Shown: positions 3,843-35,665, numbered from the stretch's first letter. The stretch: 64,000 nucleotides of DNA from Escherichia coli (GCF_011045215.1 NZ_CP049201.1); one strand, 5' to 3'. A program made the numbers and translations. Notes: generated from the letters alone by a model not told the origin.

Positions 3843-4018
3843 TCTACTATATTTCATTGATGAACAGAGAGCAGATATCAACATTGACGATTGCGGTCTG
3901 CTCTGATTCATAAATGTCATAAAGGAATGATATTTCATTTTTTTGAAGGTTATTATGATAATTTCTTTTATGCCGGAAAATATATCTTATATTACTTGTG
4001 GGTATGTTGTTGTAAGGT

Positions 4019-29137: not shown

Positions 29138-30850
29138 TTACATCAACGCCCCCATAATCTTCAACTCCAGCTCGTCCGGCACTTCATTATACGACAGCAC
29201 ATGCAGTCCCGGCGCAAACAATCTCGCATAGCGCGCCAGCAAAGGGCGAAGCTGCGGCGGCACCAGCAGCACCGGGTCTTTCCCCGCCGCTTTCATCTGC
29301 TCTTTTACCTGCGGCATCGTGTTCTGGAACTGGTTGAGCATATTCGGGTCGACCGGCACGCTGTCGAGCATCACTTTCCCGCCCTGTTGCGCCTGATTCA
29401 CCACGTTGGTCAGCAGATTTTCCAGCTCATTATTCAGCGTATACACCGTCAGCTCCTGCTTGCGAACAAACGGATGGGTAATGCTGCGCCGCAGCGCCAG
29501 GCGCACATCGGCTGCCAGCAGAATATGATCTTTGGTCACCGCGCTACTGGCGACCAGCACGGTGGCGATGGTGACGATATCGCGCAGGGAAACGCCTTCA
29601 GTCAGCAGCGCCCGGTACACTTTCAGCAACTGGCTGTAATTGAGCGCCGCGCTTAAATCCTCCGCCAGGCGCGGTGCCATCGACGACAAACGATTATGCA
29701 ACTGCGTAATATCATCATAGTTAAACAAATCAGGAATATAGCTACGCACAATCTTATTCACATGGGTGGCAATCACGCTGGCGCTGTCGATCACCTGATA
29801 CCCCATATTCAGCGCCTTCGCTTTCTGCGCGGGCTGGATCCAGGTCACCGGCATCCCATACGCCGGGTCGTTCCCCAGCACGCCGTCTATCTCGCCGTAG
29901 GTTTCGCTGGAGGGCAGGGCCATCAGTTTATCCGCCGGAATATCCGCTTCATCAGCCTTTATGCCGTTGATGAAAATGGCGTACTGGCTGGGCTTAAGGC
30001 GGAAGTTTTCCCGAATGCGGATCTCCGGCAGCAGCACGCCGTTGCCGTCGGATATCACCTGCCGCACGCCGCGAATCCGCTGGGTGAGCGGGTTGCCCTG
30101 TGCTTTATCGACCAGCGCCACCAGCTTGTAACCGAGGCTTAAACTGATAGGCTCAATCAGCGGTATCGTTTCCCAACTGACCTGCTGCTCGCTGGTTTCG
30201 GTGATGGTGCGGGTCAGCGTTTCGAGGCTTTTCTCTTCCGCCTCCGCCGCCTGCGGGCGTTTGCTCATCCGCCAGCCGGTAAAGCCAAGCAGGGCGCTGA
30301 ACAGCAAAAATGGCAGGTGCGGCATTCCCGGCACCACCGCCAGCACGAACATAATTCCGGTGGCGGTGTAGAGCACCGACGGGCTCGCCAGCAACTGGTG
30401 GCGCACGTCATGGGCGATATCGCCGTTGTCGCTGACGCGGGTAACGATAATCGCCGCCGCGGTGGAAAGCAGCAGGGAAGGGATCTGCGCCACCAGCCCG
30501 TCGCCGATGGTCATCAGCACATACTGCTGGAAGGCGGCATCGGCGCTCAGGTTGTATTTAAATATCCCGATACAGACGCCGCCGATCAGGTTGATGGCCA
30601 GAATCATCATCCCGGCGATGGCATCCCCGCGCACAAACTTCGATGCCCCGTCCATCGCGCCGTAGAAATCGGCCTCGCTGGCGACATCTTTACGCCGGGT
30701 TTGCGCCTGCGCCTGGTTGATCAACCCGGCGTTAAGATCGGCGTCAATCGCCATCTGCTTGCCGGGCATCGCGTCCAGGGTGAAGCGGGCAGAAACCTCG
30801 GAAATACGCTCGGCCCCTTTGGTGACGACGATAAAGTTGATTGTAAACAG
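29138..30850 (-). pseudogene. lfhA: FlhA-like flagellar export protein fragment (Flag-2 locus remnant lfhA)
   Basis: FlhA cytoplasmic and C-terminal TM region (FTLDAMPGKQMAIDADLNAGLI...), N-terminal about 110 aa missing; the 5' part of the long ORF is antisense of lafU. Confidence 0.75.
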
Positions 30851-31607
30851 CGTCAGTAAATCCGAGCGTGAAAGCATTATCGCCGCGCTGCACGGGCAGT
30901 CGATTTTCAACGGTGGCGGGCTGTCGCCGTTAAATAAAATCAGTCCGACGCATCCGCCGAAACCTGCCACCGTGGCGGTGCCGGAAGAGACGGAGAAAAA
31001 AGTGCGCGACGTCAACGAGAAAACGGCGCTGCTGAAGAAGAAATCCGCCACCGAGCTTGGCGAGCTGGCAACCAGTATCAACACCATCGCCCGTGATGCG
31101 CATATGGAAGCGAATCTGGAGATGGAGATTGTCCCGCAGGGATTACGCGTGCTGATTAAAGACGACCAGAACCGCAATATGTTTGAACGCGGCAGCGCGA
31201 AGATTATGCCGTTCTTTAAAACGCTGCTGGTGGAGTTAGCGCCAGTGTTCGACTCGCTCGATAACAAAATTATTATTACCGGGCATACCGATGCGATGGC
31301 CTACAAAAACAATATCTACAACAACTGGAACCTTTCGGGTGACCGCGCGCTTTCGGCTCGTCGGGTGCTGGAAGAGGCCGGAATGCCGGAAGATAAAGTG
31401 ATGCAGGTAAGCGCAATGGCGGATCAGATGCTGCTGGACGCCAAAAATCCGCAAAGCGCGGGCAACCGGCGCATTGAGATTATGGTGCTGACTAAAAGCG
31501 CGTCCGATACGCTGTATCAATACTTTGGTCAGCATGGAGATAAAGTGGTGCAGCCGCTGGTGCAAAAGCTGGATAAGCAGCAGGTGCTTTCACAACGAAC
31601 GCGCTAA
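30850..31607 (+). pseudogene. lafU: MotB-like protein fragment with OmpA-like C-terminal domain (Flag-2 remnant lafU/mbhA)
   Basis: OmpA/MotB peptidoglycan-binding motif (ITGHTDAMAY...NWNLSGDRALSARRVL), lacks N-terminal TM region. Confidence 0.7.
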
Positions 31608-31677
31608 ATGCTGAATCTTTACGCATTTCTCAAACCCTGAAATCACTGTATACTTTACCAGTGTTGAGAGGTGAGCA

Positions 31678-32733
31678 ATGCGTAAAATCATTCATGTGGA
31701 TATGGACTGCTTTTTCGCAGCGGTGGAGATGCGCGACAATCCCGCCCTGCGCGATATCCCTATTGCTATTGGCGGCAGCCGCGAACGTCGGGGGGTGATC
31801 AGCACCGCCAATTATCCCGCGCGTAAATTTGGCGTACGTAGCGCTATGCCGACAGGGATGGCGCTCAAATTATGCCCGCATCTCACCTTGCTTCCGGGGC
31901 GCTTTGACGCCTACAAAGAAGCCTCAAATCATATCCGTGAAATCTTCTCGCGCTACACCTCGCGCATTGAACCGTTGTCACTGGATGAAGCTTATCTCGA
32001 TGTCACCGACAGCGTCCATTGCCACGGTTCTGCGACCCTCATCGCCCAGGAAATCCGCCAGACGATTTTCAACGAGCTGCAACTGACGGCGTCTGCGGGC
32101 GTGGCACCAGTAAAGTTTCTCGCCAAAATCGCCTCCGACATGAATAAACCCAACGGCCAGTTTGTGATTACGCCGGCAGAAGTTCCGGCATTTTTACAAA
32201 CCTTACCACTGGCAAAAATCCCCGGCGTCGGCAAAGTCTCGGCGGCAAAACTGGAAGCGATGGGGCTGCGGACCTGCGGTGATGTACAAAAGTGTGATCT
32301 GGTGATGCTGCTTAAACGCTTTGGCAAATTTGGCCGCATTTTGTGGGAGCGTAGTCAGGGGATTGACGAACGCGATGTTAACAGCGAACGGTTGCGAAAA
32401 TCCGTCGGCGTGGAACGCACGATGGCGGAAGATATTCATCACTGGTCTGAATGTGAAGCGATTATCGAGCGGCTGTATCCGGAACTTGAACGCCGTCTGG
32501 CAAAGGTAAAACCTGATTTACTGATTGCTCGACAGGGGGTGAAATTAAAATTCGACGATTTTCAGCAAACCACCCAGGAGCACGTCTGGCCGCGGCTGAA
32601 TAAAGCTGATCTAATCGCCACCGCGCGTAAAACCTGGGATGAACGCCGCGGCGGGCGCGGTGTGCGTCTGGTGGGGCTGCATGTGACGTTGCTGGATCCG
32701 CAAATGGAAAGACAACTGGTGCTGGGATTATGA
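31678..32733 (+). CDS. dinB: DNA polymerase IV (Y-family)
   Basis: 351 aa, [18 protein letters not shown]-terminus. Confidence 0.95.
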
Positions 32734-33182
32734 ATAACATACAAATAAGAAACTATCAGCCTGGCGATTTTCAGCAACTATGCGCTATTTTCCTTAGAGC
32801 GGTTACGATGACCGCCAGTCAGCATTATTCACCACAACAAATTGCTGCCTGGGCGCAGATTGACGAATCTCGCTGGAAGGAGATACTCGCGAAATCACAA
32901 GTGCGGGTTGCAGTCATTAATGCACAACCGGTTGGTTTTATTTCCCGCATTGAACATTATATCGATATGTTATTTGTTGACCCTGAATACACCCGCCGTG
33001 GGGTTGCCAGCGCTTTGTTAAAACCTTTGATTAAGTCTGAATCCGAACTTACGGTGGACGCCAGCATAACCGCAAAACCCTTTTTTGAACGTTATGGTTT
33101 TCAGACAGTTAAGCAGCAGCGCGTTGAATGCCGTGGAGCTTGGTTTACTAATTTTTATATGCGATATAAACCGCAACATTAA
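32730..33182 (+). CDS. yafP: GNAT-family acetyltransferase YafP
   Basis: 150 aa; 4-nt overlap with dinB stop. Confidence 0.85.
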
Positions 33183-33415
33183 ATCCAGCTTGCAATGAAA
33201 ATAACGCCCGCCTGGTATGTGCGCGTTTTCTTATTCCACAAACTGCAAGGAGGTAAATCATGACAAATCCTTTATCAATGACTCTTTGCAGACCTTTCCA
33301 GGATTAATTCTTTTTTTCTTGCCCTGGATTCGTCTGCCATTTCCTGATTTTTATATTTATATACTCTAAATAATTCGAGTCGCAGTACATGCAACTTGAA
33401 GTATGACGAGTATAA

Positions 33416-33682
33416 ATGGAATGGTACATGGGCAAATATATTCGTCCCTTATCCGATGCGGTATTTACCATCGCATCTGATGACCTGTGGATCGAGAGTT
33501 TAGCGATCCAACAATTACACACCACGGCAAATTTACCCAACATGCAGCGCGTAGTGGGGATGCCAGATTTACACCCCGGACGCGGCTACCCGATTGGCGC
33601 AGCGTTCTTCTCTGTTGGTCGTTTTTACCCGACAAGACGTCGCTGTAACGGTGCTGGAAACAGAAACGGGCCGCTACTCTGA
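33416..33682 (+). pseudogene. ykfJ: RtcB-like ligase N-terminal fragment (ykfJ-like)
   Basis: 88-aa ORF ending in frame-shifted tail; sits upstream of prfH as in K-12. Confidence 0.5.
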
Positions 33683-34151
33683 CACGCTGCGTTCGGCGCT
33701 GGTTTCTCTGGATGGCGATAACGCATGGGCATTAAGCGAAAGCTGGTGTGGCACTATTCAGTGGATTTGTCCGAGTCCGTATCGGCCTCATCATGGGCGC
33801 AAAAACTGGTTTCTGGGCATTGGGCGTTTTACCGCTGATGAGCAGGAGCAATCCGATGCGATCCGGTATGAGACGCTGCGTTCGTCGGGGCCGGGTGGTC
33901 AACATGTCAATAAAACCGACTCGGCGGTACGCGCCACGCATTTGGCATCCGGTATTAGCGTGAAGGTTCAGTCAGAGCGTAGTCAGCATGCTAACAAGCG
34001 GCTGGCACGATTGCTGATTGCCTGGAAGCTGGAGCAACAGCAACAGGAAAATAGCGCAGTGCTGAAATCGCAGCGGCGAATGTTCCATCACCAGATTGAA
34101 CGTGGCAACCCGCGACGAACGTTCACAGGGATGGCTTTTATCGAAGGATAA
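33594..34151 (+). pseudogene. prfH: peptide chain release factor homolog PrfH, N-terminally truncated
   Basis: GGQ motif ([17 protein letters not shown]); N-terminal region out of frame. Confidence 0.7.
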
Positions 34152-34207
34152 TGAAGGATGAAACTGCCGGAAGGCGATTAAACGCCATCCGGCAGCAAAT
34201 CAAATAA

Positions 34208-35665
34208 TTACTTCGCCGGAATTTCTTTCAGCAGTTCAGTCAGCAGTGTCCAGTAATGACCTACGCTTTCGATGTGAACTTGCTCATCCGGAGAGTGTGG
34301 ACCGGTGATTGTTGGCCCGATAGAAACCATGTCCATTTCCGGATACGGTTTTTTGAACAGACCACATTCCAGGCCCGCGTGGATAATCTGGATGTTCGGC
34401 GTCTTGTTGAACAGGCGCTGATAGGTTTCACGTACCAGATGCATCACCGGAGAATTAGCGTCCGGCTGCCAGCCAGGATATGCGCCTTTTGCTTCGGTTT
34501 TCGCGCCAGCCAGTTTACCCAGCGAATCCAGCATGCTCACCACGTAGTCTTTACCGCTGTCGATCAGAGAACGGATCAGGCAGTGAATTTCTACGTTATT
34601 GTCAGTCATGGTCACCACACCGACGTTCAGGGAGGTTTCGACCACACCTTTTGCCACGTCGGAATTGCGGATCACACCGTTCGGGGTGGCGTTCAGCAGA
34701 CGAATAAAGGTATCGCGAGATTTCGCAATCAGGGCAGCTTTATCGTTCGCTACAGAGTCCAGCAACAAGGCCAGATTTTTCTCTTTCTCTGCCAGCTCGT
34801 TTTTCAGGATCTCCTGATAGGTATTCACCAGAGATTTCAGGGTGTCGACTTTATCAGCTGCGACAGCAATGGTCGCAAAGGCTTCACGCGGGATGGCGTT
34901 ACGCAGTGTGCCGCCGTTGAAATCAATAAGACGCAGATCCAGTTCTTCTGCATGACCCGCCAGGAAGCGCACCAGCAGTTTGTTGGCATTACCGAGGCCA
35001 ACGTGGATTTCACCGCCGGAGTGACCGCCTTTCAGACCTTTTAAGGTTAACTTGAAGGTTTCAAAACCAGCTGGAACCGCTTCACGATCTAAATGCAGGT
35101 TGGAGGTGAAGTCGATACCCCCCGCGCAACCCATGTAGATTTCACCTTCTTCTTCGGAGTCGGTGTTAATCAGAATATCAGCCTGCAACCAGTTGCTCTG
35201 TAAGCCGAACGCACCGTCCATACCGGCTTCTTCGGTCATGGTCAGCAGCACTTCCAGCGGGCCGTGAACCACGTTTTCGTCAGCCAGAACCGCCAGCGCA
35301 GAGGCCATACCAATGCCGTTATCCGCACCCAGCGTGGTGCCGCGCGCTTTAACCCATTCGCCATCAATATAAGGCTGGATAGGATCTTTCGTGAAGTCAT
35401 GCACAGTGTCGTTATTTTTCTGCGGCACCATATCGAGGTGGGCCTGCAAGACGACCGGTTTACGATTTTCCATACCTGCGGTAGCAGGTTTACGAATCAG
35501 GATATTACCTACCTGATCGCGTTCGACATGGAAACCTTTCTCTTTTGCCCAACCAACAATGTATTCAGCGAGTTGCTCTTCATGATAGGACGGGTGAGGA
35601 ATAGAACAGATTTTGGCAAAAATATCCCACAGCGGCTGTGGAGATAATTGAGACAGTTCAGACAC
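34208..35665 (-). CDS. pepD: cytosol non-specific dipeptidase PepD (M20 family)
   Basis: 485 aa, M20 metal-binding motifs (HLDMVPQ, ADNGIG). Confidence 0.95.
   Translation of the reverse strand: MSELSQLSPQPLWDIFAKICSIPHPSYHEEQLAEYIVGWAKEKGFHVERDQVGNILIRKPATAGMENRKPVVLQAHLDMVPQKNNDTVHDFTKDPIQPYIDGEWVKARGTTLGADNGIGMASALAVLADENVVHGPLEVLLTMTEEAGMDGAFGLQSNWLQADILINTDSEEEGEIYMGCAGGIDFTSNLHLDREAVPAGFETFKLTLKGLKGGHSGGEIHVGLGNANKLLVRFLAGHAEELDLRLIDFNGGTLRNAIPREAFATIAVAADKVDTLKSLVNTYQEILKNELAEKEKNLALLLDSVANDKAALIAKSRDTFIRLLNATPNGVIRNSDVAKGVVETSLNVGVVTMTDNNVEIHCLIRSLIDSGKDYVVSMLDSLGKLAGAKTEAKGAYPGWQPDANSPVMHLVRETYQRLFNKTPNIQIIHAGLECGLFKKPYPEMDMVSIGPTITGPHSPDEQVHIESVGHYWTLLTELLKEIPAK

Follow-up and report, generated by a model that had tools for sequence, protein, structure and literature searches.

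A K-12-type remnant of the rtcB2–prfH operon in Escherichia coli and the conserved leader upstream of it

Introduction

What is left of a ribosome repair operon after a deletion has run through both of its genes, and could the sequence upstream of the damage still be at work? We asked this of positions 33416–34151 in a 64,000-nucleotide stretch of Escherichia coli DNA (GCF_011045215.1, NZ_CP049201.1; hereafter, the window), where an earlier note, made from the sequence alone, had placed remnants of ykfJ and prfH.

PrfH rescues ribosomes that have been cut between A1493 and G1494, after which RtcB2 religates them (Tian et al. 2022, PMC9304027). In strains with an intact operon, colicin E3-type toxins cut the 16S rRNA at this site; PrfH frees the peptide from such ribosomes, after which the break is resealed by RtcB2, an RNA ligase. 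Tian et al. also note the deletion in K-12 (PMC9304027), and Baranov et al. (2006) had described it as a loss of approximately 1,000 nt relative to CFT073, arguing that both K-12 genes are pseudogenes (PMC1586002). The pseudogene pair, its deletion and the loss of function are already published, and the remnant itself matters little. In what follows, the deletion, its breakpoints, the reading frames and the population frequency come from our own analysis; function and loss of function are taken from the literature.

Results

The locus matches the K-12 pseudogenes ykfJ and prfH

ORF calling in the window returned two adjoining frames on the plus strand, at 33416–33682 (88 amino acids) and 33594–34151 (185 amino acids). 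The setting is the dinB–pepD neighbourhood of E. coli: dinB (31678–32733) and yafP (32730–33182) precede the two frames, and pepD (34208–35665, minus strand) follows, with gpt and frsA beyond. The extents of 33416–34151 are identical to those of the K-12 pseudogenes ykfJ (b0235) and prfH (b0236), and 722 of 736 nucleotides are the same as in MG1655 (14 mismatches; 98.1% identity), a match far beyond chance. In MG1655 (NC_000913.3), ykfJ spans 253467–253733, corresponding to window 33416–33682, and prfH spans 253702–254202, corresponding to 33651–34151; both are annotated as pseudogenes. The open reading frames, the profile matches given below and the MG1655 annotation together confirm the identification made in the earlier note.

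Using a 1.1-kb query around the region, we found matches in 5,418 of 5,426 complete E. coli genomes, in which the RefSeq names are 'RtcB family protein' and 'peptide chain release factor H', both partial; in K-12 derivatives, O121 and O157, RefSeq lists both genes as partial pseudogenes. The remnants also sit in the conserved position of rtcB2–prfH between dinB/yafP and pepD, a gene order common to O26, Citrobacter, Salmonella, Klebsiella, Kosakonia and Cronobacter.

Several features of the surroundings were recorded alongside. The yafN–yafO toxin–antitoxin pair is absent from the window, and dinB overlaps yafP directly (32730–32733). Among the loci compared with upstream context, this dinB/yafP overlap went with an undeleted rtcB2–prfH and yafNO went with the deletion. 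The combination seen in the window, without yafNO and with the deletion, is also known from other database entries, strain PapM-32-1 being one of them, and points to a recombinant mosaic. Across 24 kb (22000–46000), the best identity among the 5,426 complete E. coli genomes was 98.2%, and none reached 99%; for 31600–34200 the best was 98.7%, and the 1.1 kb around the remnants is 99.9% identical to an O121 strain. Two long ORFs at 29138–31607 adjoin and overlap each other: lfhA, which is FlhA-like and on the minus strand, and lafU, which is OmpA/MotB-like and on the plus strand. They appear to be a K-12-type remnant of the Flag-2 lateral flagellar cluster; in the comparison strain O26, motA lies beside a full-length lafU. 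In E. coli 51489 and PKF11, which carry the intact operon, prfH and pepD are separated by two additional genes, one for a 'metal-dependent hydrolase' and one for a hypothetical protein, neither of which is present in the window or in K-12.

A single 1,027-bp deletion fuses the two genes out of frame

We took as alignment reference the intact locus of E. coli O26 RM8426, in which rtcB2 (1,140 nt) and prfH (615 nt) share an ATGA overlap. Relative to this locus, the window has a single gap of 1,027 bp between 33627 and 33628. The gap is identical in K-12, O121 and O157:H7, and all 13 deletion-bearing sequences that were aligned have the same gap ends and the same 1,027 bp missing. The earlier note had described the decay as that of K-12, which this identical deletion bears out; it had also proposed alignment to an intact rtcB–prfH locus as the check and recovery of full-length ORFs as the refutation, and the alignment yields this one gap, while the full-length ORFs that we sought do not exist.

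On the left of the gap, the RtcB2 stub at 33428–33627 (plus strand) keeps 200 nt, that is, codons 1–66 and two nucleotides of codon 67, with three mismatches in those 200 nt to intact O26. On the right, prfH has lost 91 nt (30 codons and one nucleotide) and resumes at 33628–34151 (plus strand), running from the second base of codon 31 to the stop codon and in frame from 33630 (codons 32–204 of 204), with 16 mismatches in 524 nt to O26. Because 200 nt of rtcB2 are kept and 91 nt of prfH are lost, the stub enters prfH out of frame and stops at 33682, so that the last 18 codons of the K-12-style ykfJ ORF (33416–33682) are out-of-frame prfH sequence. The ATGA stop–start overlap of rtcB2 and prfH, which implies translational coupling, is at 3915–3918 of the O26 locus (L001) and was lost with the 1,027 bp; the window thus has no coupled operon. 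The junction, GGTCGTTTTTA joined directly to YCCGRCAAGACG with 1,027 bp missing relative to intact alleles, identifies the K-12-type deletion allele.

At the junction (33628–33634) lies the surviving copy of an imperfect 7-bp direct repeat, CCCG(G/A)CA. In intact alleles, the left repeat reads TCCGGCA or CCCGGCA and the right repeat CCCGACA, and the two are 1,027 bp apart. The junction copy comes in three forms: CCCGACA in the window, O121 and O157; CCCGGCA in K-12, which has G at 33632 where the window has A; and TCCGGCA in EA2 and N196. Three junction sequences among 13 sampled deletion haplotypes, with breakpoints inside a direct repeat matching at six of seven positions, could mean that the repeats are a hotspot and that the deletion arose several times independently. 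We consider such recurrence unlikely. The T/C difference is a synonymous polymorphism of the left repeat that also segregates in intact alleles (FDAARGOS_536 and 3-72 have CCCGGCA), and recurrence was dropped as the main reading once this became apparent; the G/A difference is the sole mismatch between the two repeat copies. Both fit one event followed by recombination or conversion with intact alleles, and such exchange clearly occurs, as 20 synonymous polymorphisms are common to the deletion and intact classes. Moreover, a six-of-seven match over 7 bp is weak homology for a hotspot, and the deleted length is always 1,027 bp.

From these observations we infer a single origin followed by exchange with intact alleles. 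One deletion between the imperfect 7-bp repeats, most likely by replication slippage or illegitimate recombination, removed the 3′ 83% of rtcB2, the coupling stop and start codons and the first 30 codons of prfH.

The deletion is a near 50:50 polymorphism in E. coli

Of the 5,426 complete E. coli genomes, 2,687 covered at least 80% of a 100-nt junction probe, and 2,675 had at least 80% of the 1,027-bp segment that the deletion removes. The species is thus split close to 50:50 for presence or absence of the segment. Among those without it are K-12 (phylogroup A), O121 (B1) and O157:H7 (E); among those with it are O26 and B2-like strains. The earlier note's statement that the pair is intact in some Enterobacteria can now be given numbers: approximately 49% of complete E. 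coli genomes have it intact, as do five further genera at the same chromosomal position.

Exact junction patterns had no match in 100,044 species-representative genomes; the allele is therefore in no representative genome, and its species distribution gives no date. The intact operon occupies the same dinB/yafP–pepD site in Citrobacter, Salmonella, Klebsiella, Kosakonia and Cronobacter, and the intact state is therefore ancestral. One could read the even split the other way, with the short form ancestral and the 'intact' operon a later insertion or horizontal acquisition. Only the approximately 50:50 pattern itself speaks for this, and the alignments already refute it: the short form is made up of two complementary gene halves, each with 97–98.5% identity to the ends of the full genes, full genes fill the same slot in five other genera, and the representative genomes hold no exact copy of the junction. 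We give this order of events practically no credence and take the intact operon as the starting point. As a separate observation, prfH of Intestinirhabdus alba (locus L031, 2637–3312) is called as two fragments of 144 and 61 amino acids, which may reflect independent decay in another genus.

Neither remnant retains what its original function needs

The RtcB-like N-terminal fragment of the earlier note amounts to 66 of 379 codons. Against the Pfam RtcB profile (PF01139), the 88-amino-acid ORF matched positions 1–33 of 426 with an E value of 5.4e-05 and 23 bits, below the 27-bit cut-off; a full catalytic domain at gathering score, by which RtcB family members are recognized, is thus absent, and a score below the cut-off is what is expected for a stub. 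Residues 67–379 of RtcB2 are gone, and with them the entire stretch alignable to RtcB catalytic domains of known structure (residues 102–373). Judged by its sequence, the stub is derived from an RtcB2 gene and is no functional member of the family.

More is left of PrfH. As the note had it, the release factor homologue is truncated at its N terminus, by codons 1–30 and one base of codon 31, and keeps its GGQ motif. The 185-amino-acid ORF is a member of the RF-1/GGQ family (Pfam RF-1, PF00472; E value 2.3e-24, 86 bits against a 35-bit cut-off), the retained protein is 98% identical to chain 8 of PDB 7SA4, and the GGQ codons (GGT GGT CAA; PrfH residues 120–122) are at 33894–33902 on the plus strand. 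In PrfH, the GGQ domain comprises residues 108–161, and the rRNA-recognition domain of EcPrfH comprises residues 2–98 and 180–204 (PMC9304027). The latter is incomplete in the window, where codons 1–30 and the first base of codon 31 are deleted. According to Baranov et al., a central β-strand of PrfH domain 2 is lost, and they argue that this domain would not fold (PMC1586002). Translation of the remnant also has little to start from: the prfH frame opens no earlier than 33555 and lacks an ATG, a Shine–Dalgarno sequence and coupling to an upstream gene. K-12 annotation starts prfH at the GTG at 33651; a search for Shine–Dalgarno sequences at the in-frame start candidates found none.

The experimental record agrees. 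BW25113, which has the truncated operon, is sensitive to colicin E3, and knocking out the remnant changes nothing, but the intact operon of ATCC 25922 protects against the toxin (Maviza et al. 2022, PMC9223846). The deletion leaves two pieces. One is an RtcB2 stub of 66 residues, which continues into prfH in the wrong frame; the other is a fragment of PrfH in which the GGQ catalytic domain is still present, whereas part of the rRNA-recognition domain, the start codon and the translational coupling are gone. Neither piece can perform its original task, and the locus is thus a pseudogene pair.

Variation in the remnant favours neutral decay

One aspect of the locus counts against reading it as dead: what is left of prfH still reads through 173 codons without interruption and includes the GGQ motif. 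We considered that the truncated gene might still work, with a product made from the GTG at 33651 or the TTG at 33594 that selection keeps because it rescues ribosomes or releases peptides on its own, in a manner loosely comparable to ArfB, a small GGQ factor. Besides the open frame and the intact GGQ domain, such a role would fit the intact leader described below, the reported stress inducibility of K-12 ykfJ and a low pairwise pN/pS of 0.097 among deletion haplotypes, close to the 0.104 among intact ones.

However, the pN/pS value changes its meaning once variants are split by class. Variants shared by deletion and intact alleles comprise 3 nonsynonymous and 20 synonymous changes, those private to intact alleles 10 and 22, and those private to deletion alleles 9 and 11. 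Deletion-private variants are enriched for nonsynonymous changes relative to shared ones (Fisher p = 0.039, in a small sample that was not randomly drawn). Hence the low pairwise pN/pS is mostly imported or ancestral variation, probably moved in by recombination, and new changes in deletion alleles look to be under relaxed constraint. Purifying selection on the remnant, which the pairwise ratio had suggested, was rejected after this split.

In addition, a second deletion of 169 bp (window 33817–33985), which takes the GGQ motif, is found in EA2, 98198 and N196. The 169-nt segment was found in 4,755 genomes, compared with 5,418 that have the locus; from this difference, about 650–660 genomes, or about a quarter of deletion carriers, have probably lost it. 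Relaxed private variants and a common second deletion together favour neutral decay. A working protein is also hard to reconcile with in-frame starts that have no Shine–Dalgarno sequence, a deleted ATGA coupling, the loss of residues 1–31 of the rRNA-recognition domain, a domain 2 argued not to fold (PMC1586002), the absence of a colicin E3 phenotype in K-12 remnant knock-outs (PMC9223846) and the approximately 660 genomes without any GGQ segment. We regard a functional truncated PrfH as very improbable. The region is almost certainly the remnant of an inactivated rtcB2–prfH operon, in the same allele as K-12 ykfJ/prfH.

A conserved leader precedes the remnants

In the 233-nt spacer between yafP and ykfJ, an ORF of 15 codons begins 6 nt downstream of AAGGAGG, a strong Shine–Dalgarno sequence. 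Four segments on the plus strand make up what we treat as the leader (33243–33433), which is unannotated in MG1655. Segment 1 (CTGCAAGGAGG, 33243–33253) is the Shine–Dalgarno box of the upstream ORF (uORF) and can pair with segment 2. The uORF itself (33260–33307) reads MTNPLSMTLCRPFQD, then stop, and is a candidate leader peptide of the rtcB2–prfH operon. Segment 2 (CTTTGCAGAC, 33284–33293) covers uORF codons 9–12 and pairs with segment 1 or segment 3. Segment 3 (GTCTGCCA, 33332–33339) pairs with segment 2 or with the ribosome-binding and start region of rtcB2, which is segment 4 (ATGGAATGGTACATGGGC, 33416–33433). Segment 4 holds both the K-12-annotated ykfJ ATG (33416) and the conserved RtcB2 start ATG (33428); within it, GGAWTGGTAYATGGGC is conserved from E. 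coli to Pseudomonas, and its ATGGGC is where RefSeq starts the intact rtcB2.

Conservation of the leader exceeds that of its flanks. The 64 nt comprising the Shine–Dalgarno box and uORF are identical in all 28 E. coli sequences compared, including B2-like strains. Over 33233–33352, we counted 2 variable sites in 120 nt, compared with 19 in 130 nt at the 3′ end of yafP (p = 1.5e-4) and 78 in 724 nt of the coding remnants (p = 6e-4). A GCAA(A)GGAG box lies upstream of rtcB2 in all 13 genera examined, giving the uORF its own Shine–Dalgarno sequence, and a uORF of 13–15 codons ending in ..LC(R/G).. is found in Citrobacter, Salmonella, Klebsiella, Intestinirhabdus, Kosakonia, Cronobacter, Providencia, Proteus, Pragia, Limnobaculum and a Pseudomonas sp.

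Between segments 3 and 4 lies a short form of an ERIC element consisting of the terminal arms only (33355–33410, ends within approximately 3 nt). The element is absent from B2-like E. coli and 72 bp longer, as a full element, in K-12, and the extra 72 bp match both ERIC PCR primers at 21 of 22 positions each (ERIC2 primer sequence from PMC4100117). In the predicted fold, ERIC folds on itself and helix 3:4 stays intact. Klebsiella spallanzanii (locus L030) has an ERIC-like insert at the equivalent spot.

A search of Rfam at an E value of at most 1 gave no family match for the leader, only sub-threshold hits: isrH (26.8 bits, 33350–33416, overlapping the ERIC arms), STnc350 and sR28, which were rejected as chance or repeat-derived. 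A scan of 33100–34300 for sigma-70-like promoters found no site, and a scan of the leader for terminator-like sites found none. Segment 3 is followed by a U-rich tract.

The leader is predicted to form mutually exclusive helices

The four segments can form three overlapping helices, which we compared across 11 genera. Helix 1:2, between CTGCAAAG and CTTTGCAG, is 96% paired. Helix 2:3, between GCAGAC and GTCTGC, is paired in all 66 cells of the alignment, with compensatory changes to GCGGGC:GCCCGC in Providencia, GCGGAC:GTCCGC in Proteus and GCAGGC:GCCTGC in Pragia and Limnobaculum. Helix 3:4 joins segment 3 to the rtcB2 start region and shows a compensatory GCTA:TAGC in Providencia. Two pairs have changed on both sides in helix 2:3 and two in helix 3:4, so that helices that exclude each other both show covariation. 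When the structures were slid by one to three columns, pairing fell to 20–50%. The test rests on 11 sequences in which segment-3 blocks were located by complementarity; an unbiased MAFFT alignment placed 10 of the 11 blocks in the same columns.

RNAalifold predicts helices 1:2 and 3:4, and the free RNA is likewise predicted to fold into this pair, burying the rtcB2 start codon. Masking the Shine–Dalgarno box and early codons, as a stand-in for a ribosome paused near the beginning of the uORF, shifted the fold to helix 2:3 and dissolved the long 3:4 helix in seven of the eight genera for which folds were computed. The Pseudomonas sequence formed helix 2:3 in both states, and its start-region pairing was unchanged by masking. 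With a ribosome footprint that leaves the Shine–Dalgarno box free, static minimum free energy folding did not open helix 3:4. As a side observation, Intestinirhabdus alba (locus L031, 1269–1460) has an insertion of approximately 200 nt in the loop of helix 2:3 and keeps both stems.

Discussion

In gene extents, reading frames, the missing 1,027 bp and its neighbours yafP and pepD, the locus agrees with K-12 ykfJ/prfH; it differs from K-12 in having A at 33632 in place of G and in lacking the central 72 bp of ERIC and the yafN–yafO pair. With the intact RtcB2–PrfH module, represented by ATCC 25922 and by PrfH on damaged 70S ribosomes (PDB 7SA4), it shares orthologous DNA, the retained parts being 97–98.5% identical to the intact E. 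coli allele, but it lacks RtcB2 residues 67–379, PrfH residues 1–31 and the coupled start. Unlike the intact module, the truncated operon is experimentally non-protective (PMC9223846).

The closest described counterpart of the leader is PA5471.1 of Pseudomonas aeruginosa, where stalling on a 13-codon leader relieves attenuation of armZ/PA5470 (PMC3516279, PMC12057347, PMC13041342). Compared by published description, both systems have a short uORF before a pair of rtcB2-family and prfH genes (armZ is PA5471, of the RtcB2 family, and PA5470 is prfH), and in both, alternative RNA pairings would tie translation of the uORF to downstream expression. The uORF has 15 codons in the window and 13 in the Pseudomonas sp. 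locus as well as in the published PA5471.1. The two differ in the output: segments 3:4 are reported to act as a transcription terminator in P. aeruginosa, whereas the predicted 3:4 helix of the window covers the rtcB2 start codon. The arrangement also resembles four-segment attenuators of the trp type, with overlapping helices 1:2, 2:3 and 3:4 and a pairing decided by the position of the ribosome on the leader ORF. Unlike in those attenuators, however, segment 1 is not coding sequence but the Shine–Dalgarno box of the uORF, a run of regulatory codons is missing, and the signal would presumably be general ribosome stalling rather than the supply of one amino acid. PA5471.1 of P. aeruginosa is so far the sole described leader switch of this kind, and we found no description for E. 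coli in the literature searched.

According to Morita (2006), as cited in PMC3516279, the K-12 ykfJ mRNA is inducible by 4-azaleucine. Together with the intact leader, this suggests that the stubs are probably still transcribed. By analogy with PA5471.1 of P. aeruginosa, ribosome stalling probably still acts through the leader on how the stubs are transcribed or translated. We tentatively extend this to a broader proposal, which we hold to be plausible but a little short of probable: that the leader is the stall-sensing switch of rtcB2–prfH throughout Enterobacterales, and that in the half of E. coli with the deletion it has remained intact and still drives stress-inducible expression of the stubs. 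If so, either the regulator has outlived its genes or the stubs retain some use.

For E. coli, the deletion allele predicts strains that are intrinsically unable to repair ribosome damage of the colicin E3 type. The conserved leader is the most useful by-product of the analysis and would add a member to an already known type of leader-peptide switch. It offers a testable answer to how rtcB2–prfH is switched on in enterobacteria, namely by ribosome stalling on a 15-codon uORF, and it would link the E. coli system to the armZ/MexXY induction pathway of P. aeruginosa.
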